This document shows positions 1-38,326 of a DNA stretch of 64,000 nt, piece by piece. The DNA is taken from the NCBI GenBank assembly GCA_947630765.1, contig CANRIX010000009.1, positions 10,214 to 74,213 of the forward strand. Direction: 5' to 3'. Below the pieces are notes generated by a model, which had not been told where the DNA came from, did no database searches, and saw only the letters and a program-made list of their open reading frames with translations. Position numbers and translations under genes: made by a program. The DNA is from an uncultured Clostridia bacterium. Its GTDB lineage: Bacteria; Bacillota; Clostridia; Oscillospirales; CAG-382. Numbering within the stretch: position 1 is the stretch's first letter; each line of letters begins with the position of its first letter.

Positions 1-190
1 CGGCGTACTGTGCGGTAAATTCCCCAAATTCCCCGACGGGGGAGTATTTCTGGAAGACGACGCCGCCTTCCTCATTCGTAAAGATCTCCAACGGCTCGCC
101 CTCGCGGATGCGCAGGCTGCGGCGGATCTCCTTCGGGATCACGATCCGCCCGAGTTCGTCGATACGGCGAACGATTCCTGTTGCTTTCAT
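1..190 (-). CDS. spoVT: Stage V sporulation protein T (AbrB/SpoVT family regulator). Only the N-terminal part is present; the gene runs off the window edge.
   Basis: Reverse translation from the ATG at 190-188 gives MKATGIVRRIDELGRIVIPKEIRRSLRIREGEPLEIFTNEEGGVVFQKYSPVGEFGEFTAQYA. This is the SpoVT-type swapped-hairpin N-domain followed by the start of the GAF-like part. Confidence 0.8.
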   Translation of the reverse strand, partial: MKATGIVRRIDELGRIVIPKEIRRSLRIREGEPLEIFTNEEGGVVFQKYSPVGEFGEFTAQYA

Positions 191-25666: not shown

Positions 25667-25792
25667 CAGACCTGAAAACGAACAGGTCAAATTTCCCACG
25701 GGGAGCCGTTGGAGATAACGTTGACACCGTCGGATTCGTTCGTTTTCGGAATGCTGCATCTTGCCGAACAGATGGGGTGGGGTACATAAAAG

Positions 25793-25830
25793 AAGTCAGC
25801 CGATTGGGGAAAATTCTCAATCGGCTGACT
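25793..25830 (-). terminator. Possible terminator for the island minus-strand block
   Basis: AGTCAGCCGATTG / CAATCGGCTGACT 13-bp stem. On the minus strand it is followed by CTTCTTTTAT. It lies about 170 nt downstream of the stop at 26001. Confidence 0.4.
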
Positions 25831-26000
25831 TGCGTTTGCTCTAATGACCCCCTTTGCCGTACAAGTTTTGAACATCTTACTGACTGCTTTTTCTGTGACT
25901 TAATCCACTTTAGTCAAACAGCTTCGCGTCCGTTATGATAGATTCCCCAAAAAACAATAACACACTTTCGCGACGATTTATCATTACACCACAATATGAT

Positions 26001-29000
26001 TTAAGATGTTTGTTTGATTTTAGACTTCACAATATCTAAGCTCTTGCGGTCTTGATTTGTTTCATAAAACCCGCGAATTACCTGCTGCATGGTTTCATCG
26101 AACCAAAAGATTTTTAATTTTTCTTTGGCTCTTGTAATCGCGGTATAAAAGATGCCGTGCGTTATTTTTTCGGCATTGGCAGAAGGAATAAGAATTTTCA
26201 CCGAGTTAAATTCCAAACCTTGAGCCTTATGGATTGATACTGCATAAGCAAGATGAAACGGAATAACCGTGCGTAGCCGCATTTCGTCCTGCTTTTCAGC
26301 TGGAGCCTTTGGATCATATTGATATACCGTAAACCGAACGCGCGTTTCTTCGCCAAACGTATCAATATATTCAACGTCTGTTCCGAAAAAGTGACTTTCT
26401 GTCAAAATAGTCCCTATATCTACGGTAAATGTAATGCTGTGATTGTCTTTTTTTATGTCGGCAATTCTCCCTTTCAAATTATTATAGAACATGGGAAATC
26501 GAGGTGCATTACTGAAAAGAATCGGATCACCGATTTTGTACTTCCATTCTTGCCATTCAAAAGCTTCGCTTTGCTTATTTAGGCTCTGGAAATATTTATT
26601 AATGTTGTTCAAACCAAACTTCCCGTCATAGTTCAAGCACAATATAACTTCGTCTTCTTCCTCTCTATGAAAAATATTTTCCCCGATTTTTTCAGAAAAC
26701 GGACCCTCAAAGACGAGTTTTCAGTTATCATCCCTTTGTTTCGAACTTCGTCCCACAAATTGATGAGTTCTTGCTTTTCGGTTCGCCATGTGGTCAGAAG
26801 TTCCACATTGACACCTGGCGCCTTTACCAATTCTTTCGCATAAGAAAACCAATTTCCAAAATCGATTGATTCAATCTGATAAGTATCCCCCGCCAAAACC
26901 AGAAAAGAATCCTCGTTGATTTTGCTCAACAATCTTCTCATCGTGCGATTGTCAATCGTACTGCATTCGTCAACAAAGATGACATCGTAATCTTTCAAAT
27001 TTACTTTGCGCGTAAAGCTGTCAATACTGATAAAATCATGTTCTGTTCCGGGATTGTCAATACGAGCTTTCAAATTTTGTAGTGCTGTATGTGTCTTCGT
27101 TAAAAACAGCTTGCTTCGATCATTCATCATATTGGAAAGATAATTAATCAAAGTCGTTTTGCCGGTTCCGGCAGCGCCGTATATCAACAAAATACGGGAA
27201 TTTACAAAAGCAGTTGTCAAAGCCTGTTTTTTCAACGGATCCGTAATATTGTTTTCCTGGCGTTTCACAAATTGCCGGTTAAATGCTTCTTGCCCTTTGT
27301 TGCCAATAGACGACAGTTCCAAAAGCTTTTTGATAATAAACAAAGTATCCTCTTCATAAAAGTCAATACAGGTAAATCCGTTTTCTCTTTTGATCTTATA
27401 CCCGTTTTTCAGCTCCCAATCACTGAGACTTTCATTAAATTTATCAATAGATCCTTCTGAAAAAATTGTTTCGTCAAAATAAATTTCGCCAGTTTGACGT
27501 ATCAAGCTTTTCAATTTTATAAACGGACTCATTTCATCCAGTTTACTGTCGCCCGCGGCTTTTAATATATTTTTCAAATTTCCGATTTCGTTTGTTCGAC
27601 TGCCGGGAAGATTAGAGATAAAAGGATTCCGTTCAAACGGGATACATTTCGTAGATAGAAGAAATTGGTCGCATAAACATTTTGGAGTAAACTGTGAAAC
27701 CATTACATTCTCCAGCGTTTCTTCTTTTAATTCGATCAATAAATATCTTATCGTGTTGTATCCAACGCTTTTTGAACCTTCTGCGAAATTTTTTCTCAAG
27801 TAAAGAAGGACATCCTTAAAACAAGCAGTATTGCAGTTTTGATAAATCTGATTGACAATATCATGAAACTGAAGTTCCCTTAAATCAATCAAAGATAAAA
27901 GATCAATACCCGTAGTAGTTAAAAAATTCATAAGTGCCGCATATTCTCCGTAATTTGAACTAAGCTTAGCAGAAAAACGAAACAGAATTTTTGTCAACTT
28001 ATTCAGGCACGCCGGCTCAATTGATACTTTCCAACCGGATATGATTTTGATTTCCGATGGAACATCCCACAATTTTATAGGAACTTCTTGATAGGATATC
28101 TCAATGGAGTAGTTTGTAGAAATATTCTCTTTGGTATAAACCGTGATTCGGTTATATTTCGTAGCATATATTCCCGCCAGTTGCAATGTCATCTCATAAT
28201 ACCGCTCAGTTCCAACAAAGAACGATGCTTTTTTCTGAATGTAATAGCGGTCATGGCTGGCTTTTTCAACATAACAAGGGGTATTTTCTATTATTTGAGC
28301 AACTGCTTTATAATACTCCTCATCAGCAGGATCCTCCTGATTTCGTGGGAATCTTTCTAAATTATGCAATACCGATATTCCATATTTTTTCTTTAAGAAA
28401 TCTCTGATTTGCCAAAGAAATTCATAATATTTCAACATTAGGCGTTCCGCCTGCCCTTCGTCGGGGATACGTCCTCCTATATATTTAAGAGATTTCAAAA
28501 AAGCTCCTAAATACTTGGTGCGTATATCCAGCAATGATTGTTCCCATGCCAGACTAAGGCTCACTTTGTCCTGATTGTGGCTTAATGCATTCAATATAAG
28601 TGTTGCTTTGCAAAGATCCTCCAAACGAGTCAAAATCCGCTTTGAGATATTATCGCGTGTTTCATTGCAAATGTCCATTCGGTCAATACTCTCTGTGATT
28701 TGTAGATCGCAGGACTTGATAATTTCAACTGCATCTTTTTTGGAATAGCTCGAATTGTTCAGCTCTCTGATAAAGGCATGTCGATCAATAATATCAATGA
28801 GTTCTTCGCAAAACCGTTCCACACTTTCATCCGTATTTTTAATTTCTTCTTCTGAAGAAAAAGAAATCGTTACACTTTCTTTTCCAAAATCTATGCCGTT
28901 CAAAAAGCTAACCGACATATATTTCCAAAACACTCGTTCCATTCCTCGATTGTCCGGGTGGAGTACTACAAATAAAATACAGGGATCAAATGTAACGGGC

Positions 29001-29311
29001 TGATAAGCAAAAGCGGGGAACGCCAGACTTTTCAGACAGTATTTGATTTTTCCATCAACTTCTGAATAACAGGTTGTTCCCTTTATTTGCACAAATAGGT
29101 TTTGACTTGGCCGGCGGCTGATATTCGGATTTTCCACAAACTCAAACGTCCCATCCGTATTTGGCCAGCTGTCTGTACTGGAAAAATGCGGATTGATTCT
29201 CCCGTCAGACCTTAAAAAAGATTCTAAAACGGAAACAGCAGAACGGTCTTCGGCAGATCGTTCCGTATGTGTTTTAATGTGACGTTGAATCACTTCAATT
29301 TGGTTATCCAT
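26001..29311 (-). pseudogene. N-terminal PD-(D/E)xK-like (DUF4365-like) domain fused to a C-terminal Dda/RecD-like SF1 helicase, about 1100 aa. It is split by one frameshift.
   Basis: The 892-aa ORF carries helicase motifs I GAAGTGKTT, II DVIFVDECS and III LAGDTYQ. The 213-aa ORF carries motifs V/VI (AVSIHKAQGLEFNSV, YTAITRAKEKL). The downstream frame is open back to 26706, so the two frames overlap at 26633-26706. The shift probably lies at the T6 run at 26687-26692 or just upstream. Confidence 0.75.
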
Positions 29312-29379
29312 ACACTTTACCCTCCTTAAAAGAGCGGTTTTCGATTAAGATAGCTTTTAATTCTATTAGATGTTTACAG

Positions 29380-30660
29380 TCAGGACTCCGTATCCAATTT
29401 CAAAAATCCCTGTTCAAAAGCACCGGGGAATTGAAATCTTTTATCCATACCGCCGAATACGACAACGATAATTCCTCCGTCAATGCCCTTGACCTGCCCT
29501 GCGCCAAATGCCTTGTGTGTGACAATAGTGCCCGCGCGAACTTTAGAAGTGTCTACCTTTATTGTCGCTTTCTTTGCAGACGGCGCGGGAACAGATGTAG
29601 GGGGTACGTAAGACGGACGATAGGTACCGCCCGTAGATGGCTTTGTATCATGCACAATCGGCGTTCGCTTTACATCATATTTCACTTTCGGCTCCGCCAT
29701 CAGCAAATCTTCTTCATCTTCGTCTTCATCTTCATCAAAATTGGAGCTGACGTTTGTAAATACCGGTCTTTCAGGAAGATCGTCTTCTGACGGTGCGTCT
29801 GCTTGCATGGAAGAAGCAAGTTGTCCCGCCATCGCGTCATAATCCGCGCTGGAAATGACGGTACTGTACAGACCCACATCCTCTCCGGAATGCTTGTCAA
29901 TACCCGTATAAATCAGGCTTGCGTCTTCATACCGCTTAAATTTATAAACGGCGTCATTCATCAAAGCCTCATTGAACACATTCAAGGAAACAAGCAGCTC
30001 AAAATCTTTCACATTCAGACCGGTGACTTTTTTGAAAAGCTCCGGCTCCAGCTGCGTGATGACATCCTGTAAGCTGTATTCCCGATAGTCCGTCAGATAC
30101 ATGAACACAGGCACACGGGTCGCCAACTTAATCAGTTTCTCCTGAATCATTTTCCGCTTCGATTTATATTCCTTCTCGGCGTCTGTCAGCTCTTTCTTCT
30201 CTTTTGGCGTCAATTTCTCTCCGTCACGCTTGGCTTTCTTTACGGCATTGGACTTATTGATAATCGTTTCAATATCCGAATTCAAACTACGGAAGCCTTC
30301 AATACGCATGAGTGCGTCCATGGCTTCCTCGCCGGCAAGCAACCTCGCAAGCGTGTCATTGTCTACATTAATAAGCAGCGCGGATTCCCAACGCTTGGCG
30401 AGCAGCGTCGCGGAAGTACCGGCCATAGCAATATCCAAAATCTCAGCGGCGTTGACCTGCCGCATGGCGCTTCCGTCATAGGCAAGCACAGGCAGGAAAT
30501 TGATAAACTCCCCGACCTTCTTTTCAGGGTTGCTCTCCGCCACATTCAGGCGGCAGCTGTAATCGGAAATCTGACGAAGCGCACGGTCAAGGGCGAAATC
30601 AAAGACATAACATTCCTTTCCATGGATTGTTCTGATAATTTTTTCACTTTGTGAAGAATA
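29380..30660 (-). pseudogene. C-terminal fragment of about 420 aa from an SF2 helicase/restriction (Res-like) protein with a Tudor-like tail. The 5' helicase core is missing.
   Basis: The frame is open upstream of the annotated GTG through ...IHGKECYVFDFALDRALRQISDY, which resembles the segment after helicase motif VI. There are no motifs I-VI upstream because that space encodes the methyltransferase in another frame. The C-terminus VTHKAFGAGQVKGIDGGIIVVVFGG...FLKL resembles the UvrD/PcrA C-terminal Tudor-like domain. Confidence 0.6.
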
Positions 30661-31619
30661 CCTACTGCCTCGTTGTATCGAATAAAGGTATCACATCCTT
30701 TTTCAAGCAAAGGACGGCTAACCGGTCCCAACACTTCGTTTCCTTTATGAGAATATACAGCACAGATTCCGGCATTATCTCTATCCCACAGGAAGTACGA
30801 CACACCACCTTTAATTTGAACACCAGTGAAACAATCGGATGCTTCAGGAAAATCATGAATAATTCGCAAATGATTATCGTGTAACATCTCATCACGATAT
30901 TCGTCAAGGCCTTTCCCACCTGTGAACCATCTTGATGGGGTAATCATAGAAATAAACCTTGGATTCAATTTCTTAGCACCTTGGACAAATAGTTGATATA
31001 TAGGCTTTGCACTTGCGCCATTTCCACCTCCGTCATTTAATTGATATGGCGGATTACTGATTATCACGTCAAACTTCATCTTAAATATTTCCTCCGGCTT
31101 TATGGTATGTATCCATTCATAGGCGTGAGTTTCGAGTCCTGCCTCGCGGTCGTATTCCTTTTGCGACGCCCCGCAGAACACACATCGCCCGTCTTTCCAT
31201 CTGTGCTGAATATTCTTAAAGCGTATATTCCCGTCAACCGTATCAAAGTGCGTCACGGAATAATTTCCGTTTGCCGTCTTGGAACAATACAGACTGCGTC
31301 GCGAGAGGTGAGCGGTCAGCTCCGTGATGGAAATGCCGTAAAGCTGATGTTTGAAAATGTGGTCAGTCCGCTCTTGAAGGTCAGGATAAATCGGCTCAAG
31401 ACCATCGAGAAGCCGCTTCGCTATTTCCCGCAAAAATACGCCGCTCTTTGCAGTCGGGTCTAAAAACGTGGTGTTTGGATCGCTGAACAATTCCTGCGGC
31501 AGAAGGTCGAGCATGGCGTTTGCTACTTCCGGCGGGGTGAACACCTCGTCGTTTGACAGATTGGCAACACAGGACAGCACGTCCGGGTTATACATTGTAT
31601 TATAGAGATTATTTGCCAT
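30546..31619 (-). CDS. N6-adenine DNA methyltransferase (Eco57I-like, NPPY type), possibly 3'-truncated
   Basis: FTPPEVANAMLDLLP (motif X), FLDPTAKSGVFLREI (motif I) and DVIISNPPYQ (motif IV). Confidence 0.8.
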   Translation of the reverse strand: MANNLYNTMYNPDVLSCVANLSNDEVFTPPEVANAMLDLLPQELFSDPNTTFLDPTAKSGVFLREIAKRLLDGLEPIYPDLQERTDHIFKHQLYGISITELTAHLSRRSLYCSKTANGNYSVTHFDTVDGNIRFKNIQHRWKDGRCVFCGASQKEYDREAGLETHAYEWIHTIKPEEIFKMKFDVIISNPPYQLNDGGGNGASAKPIYQLFVQGAKKLNPRFISMITPSRWFTGGKGLDEYRDEMLHDNHLRIIHDFPEASDCFTGVQIKGGVSYFLWDRDNAGICAVYSHKGNEVLGPVSRPLLEKGCDTFIRYNEAVGILHKVKKLSEQSMERNVMSLISPLTVRFVRFPITAAA

Positions 31620-32358
31620 ATTCCCAAACCCTCCTGTAATCGGTAATATAGGACGTCAGCAGTTCGCCTTCGTCGTCGGGCGAAACGTCAAACAAACTAA
31701 TCTGATAATCGCTTCCTGTTTTTTCTTCGCCGGCGGCTCATATTCGCCGGCGAGCAGTTTATCAAAGCGGAAGTCCTTGCGCTGCATTTTACTGCCCGTC
31801 ACGAACGCCCACTCGGAGAAAATGATAGGCTCGTCCGTGTCGTTTCCGTTTTCATCTACTTTTTTAAGACTCAATGCGTTGCCACAGACGATGTTCCTGC
31901 TCAAAATAAAGCGGACAGCGGCCCGACAGTCCTCACTTACTTCTTTTTTTGCAAACTGCCTCATATTCGGTGTTCCATATCTCATAAAGCCGCTCTCGGC
32001 AAGCGATAACGTTATCCATCATTAAGTCAACGCCGTAAATACTTGCCACGGCGATAACCGACTGCTTTTCAAATTCAAGAGGCAGAGGTTTCTTCTTTTT
32101 CGGCGGTGTAGAGCGCCTCTTTGCCGACTCCAGCTTGCGCCGGAGTATCTCAACCACAAAATTTCCATCGCCACAGGCAGGCTCTAAAAACCGGCTGTCC
32201 ACCCGTTCTGTCTCTTGTTTTACCAAATCGAGCATTGCGTTGACTTCGCGCTCAGCGGTAAACACTTCACCGAGATCCGCTACACGCTGCTTGGATTTCA
32301 CTTGCTTTATCGAAGATTTGCCTTCGATTGATTTTTCAGATAAATTCGTACTGTTCAT
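31609..32358 (-). pseudogene. Methyltransferase-fold protein with SAM motif I but no (N/D)PPY seen, interrupted by two homopolymer frameshifts
   Basis: GEVFTAEREVNAMLDLV, FLEPACGDGNF, IYGVDLMMDNV, NIVCGNALS. Three frames must be joined, at the T7 run at 31944-31950 and the T-run at 31718-31725. The last frame ends ...DYQISLFDVSPDDEGELLTSYITDYRRVWEYGK* and overlaps the ATG of the next gene. Confidence 0.6.
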
Positions 32359-32370
32359 GATGCTTTCCCC

Positions 32371-34236
32371 TTACCGGCAATCTGCCGCCACCGCCACCCG
32401 TTTTCCGCTGAACGCGACGCCGTATTTATATACGATTTTGACGCCCGCGGCGGTGAGCTCGGTGTCGTATTTTCTGTCGATGATCTGCTGCAGCGCGGCT
32501 TCTGACAGGCGTTTCAGCTCCGCGTCCGAGCAATTTTTGGCGGCTTTCAGCTCAATCAAAATGCCAGGTAGGTTTTTCTTTGCGGGTTTCAGCTGAATGT
32601 CATACCTACCGTCGCCGGACTCCCGGTTGGAGGAGACAAACGCCCCGCCGAGCAAGGCACAAAGGCCGAGCATGAAGCCGTGATAAAAATTTTCGCCCGC
32701 TGTATCAAAGGAGCTGACAGACTGGGTCAGCAGGGCTTGGATCAGGTCTTTCAGCCTGTCCTGATTGCCGGAGAAAATTGCTTCCTGAATGGAAATGGCG
32801 ACGGGCTGTGGAATGATGTCGTTCAGCTTTTGCAAAATTTCCTTGTGGTAGACGAGAGCAATTTCTTTGTTCGGCAGCGCCACCTCACACATAAAATCTC
32901 CGTTGAACGACGGCGTGGTTTTCAGTACTTTCAGGTAACCCGCCACCAGCAGGAAGCTGTAAATGGTGGACGGATTGTTTTTGATCTGCGGGTAAATCAC
33001 GCCCGTATCAATATAAGTCGTAAAAGACTGCCCGTTGACAAGGGAGATCAGCTTTTCGTAGATTTCCCGGTCTGCCTCCGCGATAATCTCGCCGATGATA
33101 TCATTGCTGCCGGTGGACTGCCAAAAGGCGCGCGGCTCACATTCGTTGTTGAAATAGTTAATCACCGACCAGGGGTTGAAAATCTCGGTTTTCCCGAAAC
33201 GATAGCCGTCGTACCATTGACAGAGTTCTTCGTATTTATCGGAAACGCCGTAGTAAGCCGCCATTTCCTTGACCTCTTCGGAGGTGAAGCCGAAATAGGC
33301 GCTGTATTTGTTATCTAGCACGGAATGAATGGTCAAATTATTCAGTCCGCTGAAAATGCTTTCCTTGGCCACACGGAGAATGCCCGTGAGAAACCCGTAT
33401 GACAGGTGCTTGTTGTCCTTCAGCCCGCCGGAAAAGAGGTTTCGCATAAAGAGAATCACGTTATCGTAGTAACCTCTCATGTAACCTTGCTGGATCGGGA
33501 TATCGTACTCGTCAATGATGATAATGGGCGCGACACCGTGATGCTTGTGGAGCATTCCTGACAGATTCAAAAGCGCGCCGGAAAGCTCGACCTCGCTCAC
33601 GTCACTGGAGAGCAGGTTTTCAAACGCCTTCTTTTCATATTCATTGCATTTGTCGGAGGCTTGCAGCTCGATATGGCGGGCCGCCTCTTTGGAAAAAACG
33701 TCCCGTATGGCCTCAAAGGTTTCTTCCCAAGTGTTGAACTTGATGTCCTTAAAGGTGATGAAGATCACCGGATATTTGCCTTGGCAGGCGCGGTATTTCT
33801 CGCCGCAGGCCCAAATCTTTTTGTCCTTGAAATATACGGATGTGTCTTCGTCGGTCTTTTCAAAAAAGGTGCGAAGCATATCCATATTCAGCGTTTTTCC
33901 GAACCGGCGCGGGCGGGTAAACAGAGACACCATCGGCTTTTCGTCGAGAAAATCCTTGATCATCATGGTTTTGTCGACGTAATAATATTCGGTGGACGCC
34001 AAGCGGTAGTCGGACACGCCGACCGGCAGCGGCAGCGCCGTTTTTCGGACGGTTTTTCGATAGGCTCCCGTCTTGACTCGTTTATCAATAGGTTTTTCTG
34101 CATCGGCGGGAATGACCCAATTCCTGCCGTCTTTTTTCGCCCCTGCAATGCGCCCCTCTTTGCAAAGCGTCGAAATCCTGCGTTCGCTGATATTCCAAAG
34201 GGCGGCGGCCTCTTTTGCGGACATGGTATTTGACAC
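32371..34236 (-). CDS. HTH (excisionase/MerR-like) + AAA-ATPase_like (PF09820-type) + PDDEXK_9 (PF08011-type) protein
   Basis: 621 aa. The N-terminus is AKEAAALWNISERRISTLCKEGRIAGAKKDGRNWVIP. YYYVDKTMMIKDFL...FTRPRRFGKTLNMDML is the predicted AAA-ATPase signature. The C-terminus GDGRYDIQL...ILIELKAA...AALQQIIDRKY is the PD-(D/E)xK signature. GTG start 7 nt after a GGAGG. Confidence 0.8.
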   Translation of the reverse strand: MSNTMSAKEAAALWNISERRISTLCKEGRIAGAKKDGRNWVIPADAEKPIDKRVKTGAYRKTVRKTALPLPVGVSDYRLASTEYYYVDKTMMIKDFLDEKPMVSLFTRPRRFGKTLNMDMLRTFFEKTDEDTSVYFKDKKIWACGEKYRACQGKYPVIFITFKDIKFNTWEETFEAIRDVFSKEAARHIELQASDKCNEYEKKAFENLLSSDVSEVELSGALLNLSGMLHKHHGVAPIIIIDEYDIPIQQGYMRGYYDNVILFMRNLFSGGLKDNKHLSYGFLTGILRVAKESIFSGLNNLTIHSVLDNKYSAYFGFTSEEVKEMAAYYGVSDKYEELCQWYDGYRFGKTEIFNPWSVINYFNNECEPRAFWQSTGSNDIIGEIIAEADREIYEKLISLVNGQSFTTYIDTGVIYPQIKNNPSTIYSFLLVAGYLKVLKTTPSFNGDFMCEVALPNKEIALVYHKEILQKLNDIIPQPVAISIQEAIFSGNQDRLKDLIQALLTQSVSSFDTAGENFYHGFMLGLCALLGGAFVSSNRESGDGRYDIQLKPAKKNLPGILIELKAAKNCSDAELKRLSEAALQQIIDRKYDTELTAAGVKIVYKYGVAFSGKRVAVAADCR

Positions 34237-34265
34237 GGTCGCACCTCCTCACAAGTATTGTGTAT

Positions 34266-34294
34266 AGTATAGCAGATTTCAAGAATAAAATCAA
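34266..34294 (-). promoter_or_regulatory. Putative sigma-A promoter of the island minus-strand block
   Basis: On the minus strand: TTGATT (34294-34289), a 17-nt spacer, then TATACT (34271-34266), about 30 nt upstream of the GTG at 34236. Confidence 0.5.
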
Positions 34295-34298
34295 TATC

Positions 34299-34339
34299 TA
34301 TCGGAACAATGTCAAATAAATTTTGATATTGTTCCGATA
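34299..34339. repeat. Perfect 12-bp inverted repeat next to the -35 box; candidate operator
   Basis: TATCGGAACAAT (34299-34310) and ATTGTTCCGATA (34328-34339), separated by 17 nt. Confidence 0.6.
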
Positions 34340-34848
34340 AAATGTTCTTTTGTGTGTTCTATGCGCGAGCGGGAAGAAAAACCACACTCATTTTCAAATG
34401 AAAAATGACAATCATTTAAAAAAGCAAACGGATTTCTATTGGATTTGTCTTGGATTTATGCCGTTCTTTTCGATAGGATTGCCTCCTCTCGTTTCGATAT
34501 GACGGGGACTCTCCCTTCGGAAGTCAGGCTCTTTTCGGCATGATTTCCTCTTCGTTATGACTAATCTGCTCCCTCATTTCGAGAGCAGGGGGGATTTCCC
34601 TCTTGTCATATCGGAAAGAACCTCATTTTCTTTGTCATTGAAAAGGGGTCTTTTTCAGTCAAAAAAAGAGCCTTGAAAAATGAATTTCCTATGCCCCACT
34701 TTTTGACTGAATTTTTTGAAAGAAAGTGAGCGTCCGAAAACGGAAGTCATAACAAAAAAGCTCTCGAAATTTGGTCCGTTTCGAAGAGAGGGTCATTCTT
34801 TCCAATTTTATGATAGAGGGTCGTAAATTCGGGGTAAAACCATAGTAA

Positions 34849-34916
34849 ACTTCGATTCTTGCCGAGTAAAACTTCGATTCTACCCCTTGCGAGTTCGATT
34901 CCAGCCCATTTTACCA
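34849..34916 (+). repeat. Three phased direct repeats A(C/G)TTCGATTC(T/C). The third lies inside a segment resembling a tRNA 3' end that finishes in ACCA.
   Basis: Copies at 34849-34859, 34871-34881 and 34892-34902, with 22- and 21-nt spacing. From 34894: TTCGATT + 5 nt + 7 nt + A + CCA reproduces T-loop-to-CCA spacing. Only 3 of 5 T-stem pairs form and there is no 5' half. Confidence 0.5.
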
Positions 34917-35040
34917 TCACGAATCCTAAAGGGGGCGTTTCCAGAATCCAAGTTGCACAAATTGGAAACGAAGTTGCACGCCTCGTGTTCCGACCGATTT
35001 TTGAGTCTGACGCGGACGTCGACCCGTGGTTCCAAACGAA

Positions 35041-35077
35041 AAGTAGGGGCATACCGCTCCTACTTATGCCCCTACTT
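35041..35077. other. Strong 12-bp hairpin; terminator-like on the minus strand
   Basis: AAGTAGGGGCAT (35041-35052) pairs with ATGCCCCTACTT (35066-35077). On the minus strand it is followed by TTTTCGTTTGG. Confidence 0.35.
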
Positions 35078-35254
35078 ACGCCCCTACCGTTTGGGAGCAT
35101 TGCCCCGCTAACATCTTCATCAAAAATCACCTCTTTTCTTGAAATATGTTTCCGCAAAAGTCAAACTCCTTTTGTCTTCTAAAAAAATCAGGAGGAATCG
35201 CAGCGGACTATTTTTCCGAAAAATGGAAAGACCAAAAGAGAAAGAGGTGAGAGC

Positions 35255-35504
35255 TTGCGGGTCGAAGTGAAGGAGAAACCGATTCGGGCAGCGTTTGTCT
35301 GGCTGAGTCGGGAGGAGGGGAAGAACGAAGCGCTGCTGCAATCGCTGAAGCCGCAATATGCGGCATGGAAAGCGCAGGGGTATTTGCCCGTGGTGATGGA
35401 ATCGGGTGCGGGAAATCCTAAAGACTGCCTGTACGGGCTGGTGAAGCACTACTGCGAGAAAAAAGGCAAAGGAGCAGACAAAAGACGAACGCCCACGCCG
35501 ATGA
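35255..35504 (+). CDS. Small hypothetical protein of the recombinase module; 3' end uncertain
   Basis: TTG start 7 nt after AGAGG. Sequence: ...KPIRAAFVWLSREEGKNEALLQSLKPQYAAWKAQGYLPVVMESGAGNPKDCLYGLVKHYCEKK. After the A6 run at 35459-35464 the track frame runs on to 35725. A neighbouring frame stops at 35504 (KKAKEQTKDERPRR*). Confidence 0.35.
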
Positions 35505-35641
35505 GCGGATGCCGAGCGCATCCGTTACATAAAAGTCACACTTCGGCTCTTGCTTTCCCGAGAAATTTTACGATACTACGATACAATGTTATCAAGATAA
35601 ATCTTATAAGAGCAATGTCGTTGTGTGCAAGGAGAAGTATT

Positions 35642-36494
35642 ATGGATAATTCGATACAGCTGTTTGAAGATCAACCAATCCGCATGGCGTGGGATTCGGA
35701 AAAAGAGGAATGGTATTTTCCGTAGTGGATGTGGTCGGGGTTTTGACCGAACAGCAGAATCTTGATGGCGCAAGAAATTACTGGAAAGTTTTAAAATCGC
35801 GTCTGTTAAAAGAGGGCGGCGAGTTGGTTACAAATTGTACCCAACTGAAAATGAAATCGCCCAAAGACGGAAAGCACTATCAAACCGATGTGGCCAATAC
35901 CGAACAACTCTTGCGCATTATCCAGTCCGTCCCGTTCAAAAAAGCCGAACCGTTTAAGCTGTGGCTCGCCAAGGTTGGCAAAGAGCGTCTCGAAGAAACC
36001 GTCGACCCGGAACAAGCCATCGATCGTGCGCTGGAAACGTATCTAAAAAAGGCTATTCCGCTGAATGGGTACACCAGCGCTTGCTGTCAATTCGCATCCG
36101 CAACGAATTAACCGACGAATGAAAAAAACGCGGCGTGGAAAAAGGGACGGAATACGCGATTTTAACCGACGACATCAGCAAGGCATGGTCAGGCATGACG
36201 ACGCGGCAGTATAAGAACTTGAAGGGGCTCAAAAAGGAAAATCTGCGTGACAATATGAGTGATACCGAGCTGGTATTAACCATGTTGGCAGAGACTGCTA
36301 CGCGTGACATTTCAAAATCTGAAAATCCAAACGGATTTAACGAGAGCCGCAAGGTAGCAACTCGCGGCGGCAAAATCGCCGGAAACGCCCGAAAGGAACT
36401 TGAATCCGAAATCGGCGAACCGGTAATTACGCCGAAAAACGCATCCGAACTCGGTCTTCTTGTCCGTGAATTGATTGAGGAGGGGAAGTCATGA
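35642..36494 (+). pseudogene. Bro-N / DinD-like (phage antirepressor-type) gene with two frameshifts and an in-frame TGA
   Basis: ATG at 35642 after GGAG. MDNSIQLFEDQPIRMAWDSEKEEWYF|SVVDVVGVLT... shifts at the T4 run at 35716-35719. ...ETYLKK|GYSAEWVHQRLLSIRIRNELTDE shifts at the A6 run at 36045-36050. TGA at 36120-36122 sits where W is expected (DE*KKRGVEKGTEYAILTDD). Confidence 0.75.
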
Positions 36495-38326
36495 GCGAAC
36501 CGTTTCAAATTGCGGGATATTGCCGCATTTCGGTGGACGAGGAGCTTGACTGCGACAACACCTCGATTGAAAACCAAAAATCCATCATCAGGGACTACGT
36601 ATCCCGCGCCTTTCCCGGCTCAAGCCTGACCTTTTACGAGAACCGTGACCGGTCGGGTTATACCTTCGAGCAGCGGGAGGGGTATCAGGCCATGCGACCG
36701 CTGCTGATGAATCACGGGTACGACGTTCTTGTCATCAAGGACTTTTCCCGCTTTTCCCGCCGCAACAGCCGGGGACTGGTGGAGCTGGAGGATCTGCGGG
36801 ACGCAGGACTGCGGATCATCTCGCTCGGCGACAGCATCGACTACCCCACCTATGACGACTGGACGGCGATCCAGCTCCGTTTCCTCGTCAACGAAATGCC
36901 GGTGACCGACGCGTCCAAAAAGGTCCGTTCGGTCATCAAACGTCGACAGGAGGACGGAAAGTGGATCTGCGCCGTGCCCTATGGTTACGTCATTACCAAC
37001 TCCAAGACCATGACCTTTGAGCCCGAACCCACCGAAGCGGAGGTGGTGCGGGAGATTTTTTCGCTGTATAACGACGGCTGGGGCTATAAGCGGATCGCGG
37101 AGCATTTGACCGACAAGCACATTCCTACGCCCCGCATGAACGAGCGCACCCGCAAGGAAGCCCGCGGCGAGGACTGTAAAATCAAGGCGCGTCCGGAATG
37201 GAGCATCGCCACGGTGCAGGGCATTTTGCAGAACGATTTTTACATCGGCACCCTGCGGCAGGGCAAATACACCCGCAAAAAAAACGGCGGCGACGTGAAA
37301 CGGGAGCAGGACGAGCATATCGTTTTTGAAAATCACCACGAGGCCATCGTGGACTATAAGACCTTCGCCGTCACAAAACAGTCGCTGAAAGTCCGCTCCA
37401 CCGGCAACTATCGCGGCGTGCGTAAGTATGACAACGTCTATTCGGGGCTGATGGAATGCGGCGACTGCGGCAGTCCCATGTTCCCCATGAGCCGCAAGGA
37501 CTTAAAAGAAGCCTACCGCTGCGGTACGTATCACCGGCGGGGGTTGAAAGGCTGCACCAGCCACCACATCCGGGTAAACGTGCTGGACGGACTGCTGAAA
37601 GAATATCTGCGCAAGGTGCTGGACGGCTCGGCGGATGATCAGAAAGTTGGAAAAACAGATCGCCGACGAGTCCTCCGCCGAAAAGCAGAACCGGGAAATA
37701 ATTTCCATTTTGGAACGCCAGCTTGCCGACGCAAAGAGGAGCTGAAAGTCCTTATCCGGCAAAAGACCCGCGAGGTGATGCGAAAGCCGGAAGAAGAGGC
37801 GCAAATCGAAGAAACCTACGGCGAGTTGATCGACGAGTGCCGTCTGCGGGCTGCGGGGCTGGAAAATCAAATCGCCCTCACCGCCGACAAGCGCAACACG
37901 ATCATTCGCGTCAACCGCATCGCGTCGACTGCGCTAGGGATCTTCGATGAGATCCTCGCACACGACCGCCTGGACAAGCGCGACTTGGAATTGCTGGTGG
38001 AGCGCATTTACGTCTATGAGGATCATATTCACATCAAGTCAAAACCCGATATAGAATGTATCCTGCAAAGCGGCGCGCTGCCGGAGGAAAACGGGTCGGA
38101 AGCCGCAAATTTTGATTCGGGCGTCATAGGTATCGCACAGACCCGCGCAGTCCAGACGAGCGCACACCGTCCGGACAAGGTCTATGGCGTCAATGTTATC
38201 AGCAGCGGCGACGGCGACGAAATGCGCACGAACGGCGTTATCCGCTTCCTTACGAGAGCATCCAGCCGGGATTCCCGAGGGAAACGTTGTCGCAGGTGTT
38301 CCCGTCCCCCGCGTCCCCGCAGGTGA
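36491..38326 (+). CDS. Large serine recombinase. The ORF stays open but about 35 codons in the coiled-coil region are out of their apparent native frame, and the 3' end reads into host DNA.
   Basis: The resolvase catalytic domain is YCRISVDEE...SIENQ...RDRSGYTFEQREG...FSRFSRR. It is followed by a recombinase domain and a zinc ribbon (CGDCGSPM...CGTYHRRGLKGCTSH). It overlaps the Bro gene stop by 4 nt. Confidence 0.85.
   Translation: MSEPFQIAGYCRISVDEELDCDNTSIENQKSIIRDYVSRAFPGSSLTFYENRDRSGYTFEQREGYQAMRPLLMNHGYDVLVIKDFSRFSRRNSRGLVELEDLRDAGLRIISLGDSIDYPTYDDWTAIQLRFLVNEMPVTDASKKVRSVIKRRQEDGKWICAVPYGYVITNSKTMTFEPEPTEAEVVREIFSLYNDGWGYKRIAEHLTDKHIPTPRMNERTRKEARGEDCKIKARPEWSIATVQGILQNDFYIGTLRQGKYTRKKNGGDVKREQDEHIVFENHHEAIVDYKTFAVTKQSLKVRSTGNYRGVRKYDNVYSGLMECGDCGSPMFPMSRKDLKEAYRCGTYHRRGLKGCTSHHIRVNVLDGLLKEYLRKVLDGSADDQKVGKTDRRRVLRRKAEPGNNFHFGTPACRRKEELKVLIRQKTREVMRKPEEEAQIEETYGELIDECRLRAAGLENQIALTADKRNTIIRVNRIASTALGIFDEILAHDRLDKRDLELLVERIYVYEDHIHIKSKPDIECILQSGALPEENGSEAANFDSGVIGIAQTRAVQTSAHRPDKVYGVNVISSGDGDEMRTNGVIRFLTRASSRDSRGKRCRRCSRPPRPRR

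Follow-up and report, generated by a model that had tools for sequence, protein, structure and literature searches.

A probable frameshift-inactivated copy of a mobile nuclease-helicase gene, the long form of PDC-S53, in a low-GC island of a Clostridia bacterium

The DNA analysed here, referred to as the window, is a stretch of 64,000 nucleotides (nt) from a contig of an uncultured Clostridia bacterium (CANRIX010000009.1). At 26001..29311 on its minus strand lie two adjacent open reading frames (ORFs), which an earlier note, made from the sequence alone, had joined into one protein and put forward as a candidate for anti-phage defence. The gene is probably a frameshift-inactivated copy of a mobile nuclease-helicase gene, the long form of the family that PADLOC catalogues as PDC-S53, for which a mechanism of the intact protein may be proposed. 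The parts of this reading are not equally firm. The assignment by homology and architecture is close to certain, and a defence role for the intact protein is fairly probable, while the particular mechanism proposed, consisting of loading, translocation, and cutting, is offered as a tentative model.

One gene split by a single-base deletion

The two ORFs lie at 26633..29311 (892 aa) and 26001..26642 (213 aa) and overlap by 10 nt. Read upstream, the frame of the downstream ORF remains open to 26720 and encodes ...KLVFEGPFSEKIGENIFHREEEDEVILCLNYDG. Insertion of one A into the A4 run at 26718..26721, which turns ACTGAAAACTCG on the minus strand into ACTGAAAAACTCG, joins both frames, and the repaired product is 1103 aa long and free of internal stops. 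The repaired protein aligns without gaps to P0001, an intact homologue of 1102 aa, with 1081 of 1101 positions identical (98%), and the junction in P0001 reads GMITEKLVFEGPF, as it does in the repaired window protein. In the DNA alignment with L001, the contig that encodes P0001, the difference between A4 and A5 is the sole indel within the coding region. Because the repair matches P0001 gaplessly across the junction, the two frames are one gene, split by a single-base deletion and coding for a DUF4365-nuclease/helicase protein of 1103 aa, in agreement with the figure of about 1100 aa anticipated in the earlier note. A total of 1240 homologues were obtained at E ≤ 1e-5, of which the 120 best are without exception about 1100 aa long, with a coverage of 98-100%; the pattern is not due to chance. 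All the motifs quoted in that note are present in the repaired protein, namely WPNTDGTFEFVE (aa 49-60), LFVQIKGT (72-79), GAAGTGKTT (712-720), DVIFVDECS (776-784), LAGDTYQ (806-812), SIHKAQGLEFNSV (1026-1038), and YTAITRAKEKL (1056-1066).

The lesion at 26718..26721, an A4 run where intact relatives have A5, shifts the frame by -1 after codon 864, and the protein is thereby cut short ahead of helicase domain 2A, which carries motifs V and VI. The identical truncated product of 892 aa is encoded on seven other metagenome contigs. Three of the seven were examined; they come from three different ENA assemblies (ERZ27249358, ERZ27249129, and ERZ27249352), and their identity to the window, including the host flanks, is 99.5-99.9%. 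The examined contigs also share broken ORFs of an Eco57I-like methylase and, where that region is on the contig (L008), the split ORFs of PDC-S13, another PADLOC candidate. Since the frameshift recurs on the seven contigs, it appears to be a real allele of the lineage and not a one-off error, and since the deletion removes domain 2A, the window copy would be non-functional. The gene in this genome is thus, on sequence grounds, very probably a genuine pseudogene in a decaying serine-recombinase island, and the suggestion that it is a working defence gene here does not hold. The ratio of non-synonymous to synonymous substitution rates (dN/dS) relative to the intact allele is 0.145, and downstream of the lesion there are only one non-synonymous and seven synonymous changes, which indicates that the inactivation is recent.

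It could be argued instead that the gene is functional and that its split reflects a sequencing artefact, programmed frameshifting, transcriptional slippage, or two products that reassemble. The lesion affects 1 nt of a homopolymer, PDC-S13 also appears to carry a T5 to T4 change, the excess of synonymous changes past the frameshift is what a functional gene would show, and the downstream start overlaps the upstream stop (TTGA), an arrangement that could permit translational coupling. An artefact was rejected, however, because the allele recurs on the seven other contigs, which were assembled independently. Programmed frameshifting and slippage were rejected as well, because the run is only A4, too short for slippage, the site has no slippery heptamer of the form X-XXY-YYZ, and the homologues, more than 1000 of them, are single ORFs. 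Moreover, motifs V and VI, and with them the arginine finger, are missing from the 892-aa product, and the methylase and PDC-S13 genes are broken identically in all copies, consistent with a decaying island. A functional gene in this genome is therefore regarded as highly improbable.

Predicted domains of the repaired protein

The N-terminal domain (aa 1-190; 28742..29311, minus strand) is supported, by profile and fold comparison, as a PD-(D/E)xK nuclease domain of the DUF4365/DREN type with a predicted active site at D53, E57, Q75, and K77. The isolated domain scores 25.9 bits (E = 1.1e-5) against Pfam DUF4365 (PF14280), above the gathering cut-off of 24.3, and the N-domains of 13 of 15 relatives match the same family, with a best E of 3.7e-10. 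Models were made with AlphaFold2 (AF2); in the model of aa 1-690, with a predicted local distance difference test (pLDDT) of 79, the N-domain is predicted to consist of two α-helices, five β-strands, an α-helix, and two β-strands. The best PDB match of this model in Foldseek is 9qcc_A, the DREN-APAZ chain of the activated XauSPARDA filament (E = 3.5e-3, probability 1.0, 152 columns), and its best match in BFVD is a DUF4365 protein of Leptospira phage LE1 (E = 2.3e-3, template modelling (TM) score 0.58). The earlier note had proposed a DUF4365-type arrangement D...E...Q-x-K over about 150 residues; its assignment to a nuclease family is borne out by the profile search and the 9qcc_A match, while the size is revised to about 190 aa.

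The putative active site (aa 49-79; 29075..29167, minus strand) comprises D53-G-x-x-E57 on β2 and Q75-x-K77 on β3. D53, G54, E57, Q75, and K77 are invariant across 15 N-domains, and DGxxE...QxK is kept in 36 of 38 long-form loci. Compared with the D-x-G-x-D...Q-x-K motif of DUF4365, the sequence D53-G-T-F-E57...Q75-I-K77 keeps the i/i+4 spacing of the acidic pair, but its second acidic residue is E and not D, and its glycine is displaced. In the DUF4365 toxin EAT16, mutation of DxGxD...QxK abolishes toxicity (PMC11297309), and the counterpart residues are D41/Q60/K62 in the DREN of NbaSPARDA (PMC12205087) and Q62/K64 in TmuRE (PMC10810196). Across these DUF4365 proteins, mutating the matching residues abolishes nuclease activity or toxicity (PMC12205087, PMC11297309, PMC10810196).

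The same DUF4365 N-domain is found outside the window in P0150, a protein of 1038 aa whose N-domain is 59% identical over aa 2-185. There, an ATP-grasp domain and a weak radical-SAM-like region take the place of the helicase. P0150, which has no match in PADLOC, may be a further effector fusion of an uncharacterised kind. Because it is also joined to this unrelated protein, the N-domain behaves as a mobile module.

The middle region (aa 191-690; 27242..28741, minus strand) forms the conserved N-terminal half of the PDC-S53 core. In the AF2 model, where most of it has a pLDDT of 80-93, it consists of a helical part (191-343), a five-stranded β-barrel (355-430), and a second helical part (432-690). 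The earlier note could match about 480 residues here to nothing. In keeping with this, aa 191-690 matched zero Pfam families, and a profile of the region gave nothing significant against PDB sequences; the region is nevertheless about 500 aa long and belongs to a conserved core, since the PDC-S53 profile of PADLOC covers it. Conserved motifs include ERLMLKYY (aa 289-296), K-x-N-R (385-388), W-x-V-S-I-x-P (427-433), and C-x-P-F (556-559). In the Foldseek search, the nuclease match is followed by proteins with the oligonucleotide/oligosaccharide-binding (OB) fold, including the editosome KREPA proteins, single-stranded DNA-binding proteins, the MCM N-terminal domain, and LEF-3, at E of 0.01-0.6. 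As Foldseek gives no query coordinates, we infer their placement on the barrel (28022..28249, minus strand). The barrel has invariant or near-invariant aromatic and basic residues (Y357, F364, K385, R388, Y401, and W427). With low to moderate confidence, it may be taken as an OB-like module that probably binds single-stranded nucleic acid.

The C-terminal part (aa 691-1103; 26004..27241, minus strand) is, judged from its motifs and modelled fold, a complete superfamily 1B (SF1B) helicase of the RecD2/RecD/Dda/Pif1-like group, as the note had proposed for superfamily 1 in general. Pfam places AAA_30 (4e-17) and UvrD_C_2 (6e-11) here, and the top helicase match in Foldseek is RecD2 (3gpl_A; E = 2.8e-20, TM 0.71), followed by RecD, Pif1, and Dda. 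Motif I (Walker A) lies at 712-720, motif II (Walker B) at D781-E782, motif III at 806-812, motif V at 1026-1038, and motif VI at 1056-1066; a β-rich 2B insert (about 916-996) separates motifs III and V. Among 72 family members, none of the motif residues varies. Orthology with RecD or RecD2 was rejected, because the NCBIfam scores are 120 bits against a cut-off of 310 for RecD and 119 against 500 for RecD2. Translocation in the 5' to 3' direction on single-stranded DNA (ssDNA) would be expected from the behaviour of the SF1B family. When the full-length model was compared with the PDB in Foldseek, helicase matches only were obtained, and zero solved full-length relatives.

Family, island and neighbourhood

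Residues 196-1101 match the PADLOC profile PDC-S53 (PDLC05035) over positions 6-896 of 900 with E = 4e-277 and 920 bits, and the short relatives P0171 and P0184 match it over positions 1-895/896. Canonical PDC-S53 is a protein of about 900 aa that begins at the counterpart of residue ~196 and has no nuclease. The window protein departs from this architecture in having 195 extra N-terminal residues, those of DUF4365, outside the profile. By profile and architecture it is a long form of PDC-S53, and the N-terminal nuclease is the only addition to the catalogued family. Since the core has already been catalogued, what is new in the protein, by the standard that the earlier note itself had set, is reduced to the N-terminal fusion. 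The PDC systems, 145 in number, are untested candidates; they were predicted from BREX, DISARM, and type I restriction-modification (R-M) loci on the principle of 'guilt by embedding' (Payne et al., bioRxiv 10.1101/2024.01.29.577857). The name 'PDC-S53' was not found in the literature searched or in the supplements of that paper, nor was a description of a DUF4365-helicase fusion found in the literature searched.

An exhaustive HMMER search with aa 1-690 yielded 717 clusters (50% identity) at E ≤ 0.001, among which two architectures are present: one of about 1100 aa with the N-domain, and one of about 900 aa that starts at residue ~196. With one genome taken per species, relatives are encoded at at least 591 loci. 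The long form is found in gut anaerobes, mostly Bacillota, and the short form in Actinomycetota, Proteobacteria, Patescibacteria, Bacteroidales, and other groups. Among the long-form loci, 35 of 38 are intact. In a neighbour-joining tree built on the core common to both forms, the 28 long forms fall into a single clade, which suggests that the nuclease was acquired once, in a clade mostly of gut Bacillota.

The gene lies in a low-GC island; the earlier note, too, had pointed to an island context. The island (25700..38250, about 12.5 kb) has a guanine plus cytosine content of 36-50%, compared with 62-67% in the genome; it is delimited by this profile and, on the left, by the end of homology to the island in L001 at 25700, the right-hand limit being approximate. 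At the left end the helicase gene comes last, and a large serine recombinase gene with Resolvase, Recombinase, and Zn_ribbon_recom domains occupies the right end. A search for attachment-site repeats at the island ends found zero shared words of 10 or more bases. A strong Shine-Dalgarno sequence read from the DNA, AAGGAGG (29321..29327, minus strand), precedes the helicase ATG at 29311 by 9 nt. Promoter-like sites, 11 for 10.4 expected, are no more frequent than chance predicts; there are 7 terminator-like sites (3.2 expected), none of them directly 3' of the helicase gene on its strand, and scans of the window with tRNA and Rfam models gave zero matches.

At other loci the gene is found among defence genes, which vary from one locus to the next. 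In L001 the intact allele comes directly after hsdR of a type I R-M operon; in Clostridium sp. KNHs216 a type IV restriction enzyme and a Pbe system are nearby; and in another lineage the neighbours are GmrSD, type I R-M, Septu PtuAB, and a Mokosh-like helicase. A partner was sought by all-against-all clustering of the ORFs within 3.5 kb at 55 loci, and no neighbour family occurred in more than 8 of the 55, the commonest being HsdR, immediately upstream. At two short-form loci, the upstream ORFs bear no relation to the N-domain. The long-form gene of PDC-S53 is therefore a stand-alone, horizontally mobile gene with no obligate partner that resides among defence genes. Members are rare in viruses and plasmids, with about 14 in 2.9 million viral contigs, 3 in 50,697 phages, and 7 in 72,556 plasmids, and in two temperate phages the family gene is placed antisense to the genes of the replication module, with R-M and recombinase genes next to it. 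Because of this rarity and the antisense placement, it appears to be a stand-alone accessory gene of the defence type rather than one with a role in replication or transfer.

Two recurrent arrangements were seen around other members. In the phages TPDSL_ph1 of Terrisporobacter (L129, 5137-5970) and phi1605 of Erysipelothrix (L130, 5131-5964), a gene of about 278 aa stands immediately before a short-form PDC-S53 gene, and seven viral contigs from IMG/VR (L096-L101 and L103) carry the same conserved gene in that position. Its product has no Pfam match and is unrelated to the nuclease, middle, and helicase domains; it is absent from the 80 retained loci of the genome scan and the other loci examined. 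The pair may constitute a two-gene sub-type confined to the phage-borne subclade of the short form. At L035, L056, L058, and L091, which include short and long forms, a gene with helix-turn-helix (HTH) and Peptidase_M78 (ImmA/IrrE-like) domains lies directly upstream of the helicase gene, and in three actinobacterial loci it is preceded in turn by a conserved gene of 230 aa. This arrangement may represent a regulatory module.

Other genes of the island are disrupted as well. At 35255-36494 (plus strand), PDC-S13, a protein with a Bro-N domain, is split into three frames: its N-terminus, MDNSIQLFEDQPIRMAWDSEKEEWYF, is at the end of the ORF 35255-35725, the ORF 35689-36111 corresponds to profile positions 28-136, and the ORF 36135-36494 to positions 165-275. 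The first break resembles a deletion from T5 to T4 at 35716-35719, and the same split ORFs occur in L008. At 29380-32358 (minus strand) there are four consecutive ORFs of 141, 109, 357, and 387 aa. Fragments of methylases from Eco57I/MmeI-like (type IIG-like) enzymes are encoded by the 141- and 357-aa ORFs. The tail of the 357-aa ORF seems to be out of frame, and the 387-aa ORF follows this ORF in frame. This segment looks like a broken R-M or methylase cassette. With the helicase, methylase, and PDC-S13 genes all broken, the island is to be seen as a decaying rather than an active defence island, the opposite of the first reading.

The copies of the island also differ from one another. The recombinase gene (36491-38326, plus strand) exhibits an indel polymorphism: L008 is without 26 nt (37421-37446) and its gene is called as 373 aa plus fragments, compared with an ORF of 611 aa in the window, the last part of which appears to extend towards a convergent host gene ending at 38250. 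Within 30001-30526, L010 differs from the window at 39 positions in 525 nt, many of them spaced by multiples of three, whereas its helicase gene is identical and only 3 differences are found among the remaining ~8,470 aligned positions. This clustering points to a tract of recombination in the 5' portion of the 387-aa ORF.

The window also differs from L001. The gene at 32371-34236 (minus strand) is intact and codes for 621 aa with the domains HTH_17, AAA-ATPase_like (PF09820), and PDDEXK_9; it is conserved in both versions of the island (620 aa in L001). When 29298-32388 is compared with L001 2214-8621, the flanks are common, with 92% DNA identity in this gene and 97.5% in the helicase gene. 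Between these flanks L001 has an apparently intact hsdM, an unknown gene, hsdS, and hsdR, whereas the window has the Eco57I-like fragments. An R-M cassette has thus been swapped within a conserved island frame. Beyond the island end, the flank of L001 (12206-12312) matches window positions 84-190 with 80% identity and not the island-adjacent sequence of the window; therefore, the island in L001 either is at a different site or lies in a rearranged or different high-GC host.

Proposed function and relation to known systems

Under the tentative mechanism for the intact protein, the OB/helical module would load it on ssDNA, ends, or forks of invading or replicating phage or plasmid DNA. The SF1B motor would then translocate 5' to 3' with ATP, and the tethered DREN nuclease would cut the tracked DNA and so block replication of the invader. 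Strong activation might spill over into damage to host DNA, with an outcome resembling abortive infection.

A number of points weigh against this reading. The score of DUF4365 in the whole-protein scan is 22.1 bits, just under the cut-off, and the nuclease fold matches given above are weak by E-value in both the PDB and BFVD. When a profile of the N-domain and two single divergent N-domains were searched against PDB sequences, no SPARDA protein or other meaningful match was returned, so that the link to DREN is carried by Pfam and the fold comparison. The OB assignment likewise depends on the fold matches at E of 0.01-0.6. The dN/dS of the N-domain relative to L001 is about 1, on 12 changes only. 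Helicase polarity, nuclease activity, and substrate are predictions, and the PDC set, including PDC-S53, consists explicitly of untested predictions (bioRxiv 10.1101/2024.01.29.577857; PMC13645617). DREN in SPARDA is inactive as a monomer and requires tetramerisation, a different activation logic (PMC12205087). Furthermore, most of the family, the short form, is without any nuclease, and the core must therefore act or signal without one; this weakens a simple model in which the helicase feeds the nuclease, and no current model explains the core's own activity.

The last two points lead to the main rival, namely that the helicase/OB core senses invader DNA or a phage protein and that oligomerisation then assembles an active DREN tetramer, which degrades all cellular DNA and causes abortive infection. 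This would fit the behaviour of DREN alone, which becomes active only by tetramerisation on an Argonaute filament (PMC12205087), as well as the killing of Escherichia coli by a DUF4365 toxin (PMC11297309) and the properties of AbiO, a validated single protein with a nuclease and a superfamily 1 helicase, which belongs to the abortive-infection genes and is toxic when present at high copy (PMC13064643). It would also suit a nuclease that is a modular add-on to a core working without it and that is fused to P0150 as well. However, there is no sign of oligomerisation, the AF2 model being a monomer, and no filament-forming partner, APAZ domain, or Argonaute is present in the protein or the scanned ORFs of the island. 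Besides, processive enzymes such as Dna2, a weak fold match here, are likewise built as a nuclease covalently fused to a motor. Collateral degradation by a DREN tetramer is considered unlikely, though it is the main rival to cutting of the tracked DNA.

If its role lies outside defence, the protein might serve the replication, transfer, or maintenance of the island or a prophage, or it might be a repair enzyme like RecD2 or Dna2, as its position on an island with a serine recombinase, weak matches to TraA/TraI helicase regions and to RecD/RecD2, the annotation of relatives as 'RecD-like' or 'Dda-like helicase', and the few copies in temperate phages and plasmids would allow. Yet the Pfam scan of the protein reveals no relaxase or replication-initiator domain, and its RecD and RecD2 scores fall far under the NCBIfam cut-offs. 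The rarity of the gene in viral contigs, phages, and plasmids, and its antisense position in two phages, also count against such a role; its neighbours are defence systems and not transfer genes, and its distribution is patchy and resembles that produced by horizontal transfer, with loss tolerated in the window genome. A non-defence function is accordingly judged improbable, and a defence role continues to be favoured.

A broader proposal, speculative and rather unlikely as a whole, is that the long form represents the first Argonaute-independent use of the DREN collateral nuclease. A helicase/OB sensor would detect ssDNA or replication intermediates of the invader, and ATP-driven self-assembly would license DREN, giving single-protein abortive-infection immunity widespread in human and animal gut Bacillota; the short form would be the ancestral sensor-motor with a nuclease-independent effect. 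Should the intact protein defend against phages or plasmids, one of the 145 candidates of PADLOC would become a validated system. DREN, so far seen as an Argonaute effector and as a toxin of extracellular contractile injection systems, would then be seen to be driven by a helicase, which bears on how collateral nucleases are restrained. Targets for mutagenesis are already defined (D53/E57/K77, K718 of Walker A, and the OB-barrel residues), and the long and short forms, with and without the nuclease, offer a natural test of the conserved sensor-motor core alone.

Among known systems, the closest is PDC-S53 itself. Both it and the window-type gene are single genes without a partner, often adjoin type I R-M, and share the same middle region and SF1B helicase; the canonical form of about 900 aa is without the 190-aa DUF4365 nuclease. 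With the DREN of SPARDA the window protein shares the domain family, the fold, and the D/E...Q-x-K site, and in SPARDA, too, DREN is the N-terminal effector module of a larger sensor protein. The window protein, however, has its domain fused to a helicase and has no Argonaute partner, with zero matches to APAZ or PIWI in it or in the scanned ORFs of the island, and is not SPARDA.

The helicase of Nhi is Upf1-like, with AAA_11 and AAA_12, and that of Hna, which has its nuclease at the C-terminus, belongs to superfamily 2. Nhi and Hna share with the window protein the concept of a nuclease and a helicase in one chain, but the Pfam domains of the latter are AAA_30 and UvrD_C_2 and not AAA_11/AAA_12. 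Membership in Nhi was rejected, as its model (PDLC02372) is present in the PADLOC library and gave no match at E ≤ 1. Membership in Hna is unlikely, since the window helicase is of SF1B and not superfamily 2; no model named Hna appeared in the output from the 2023 PADLOC library, which may lack one. The earlier note had cited both as examples of this design, and the similarity in layout stands, as analogy only. Nhi and Hna are both mentioned in PMC13064643. AbiO likewise joins, in one chain, a PD-(D/E)xK nuclease-like domain at the N-terminus to a superfamily 1 helicase at the C-terminus, and phage resistance has been validated for it (PMC13064643). It is far smaller (468 positions in the PADLOC profile), is without the middle OB/helical region, and has a nuclease that resembles a type II restriction endonuclease and not DUF4365. 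Membership in AbiO was rejected, because its model did not match the window protein and short forms matched only positions 176-345 of 468, the P-loop region.

With RecD2, RecD, Dda, and Pif1 the window helicase shares the fold and all the motifs, although it is not an orthologue of them. Dna2 likewise combines a PD-(D/E)xK nuclease, an OB or barrel element, and an SF1B motor in one chain; it aligns at a TM score of 0.20 only, and its nuclease family and domain order differ. Unlike a housekeeping gene, the window-type gene is mobile, patchy in distribution, and borne on islands.

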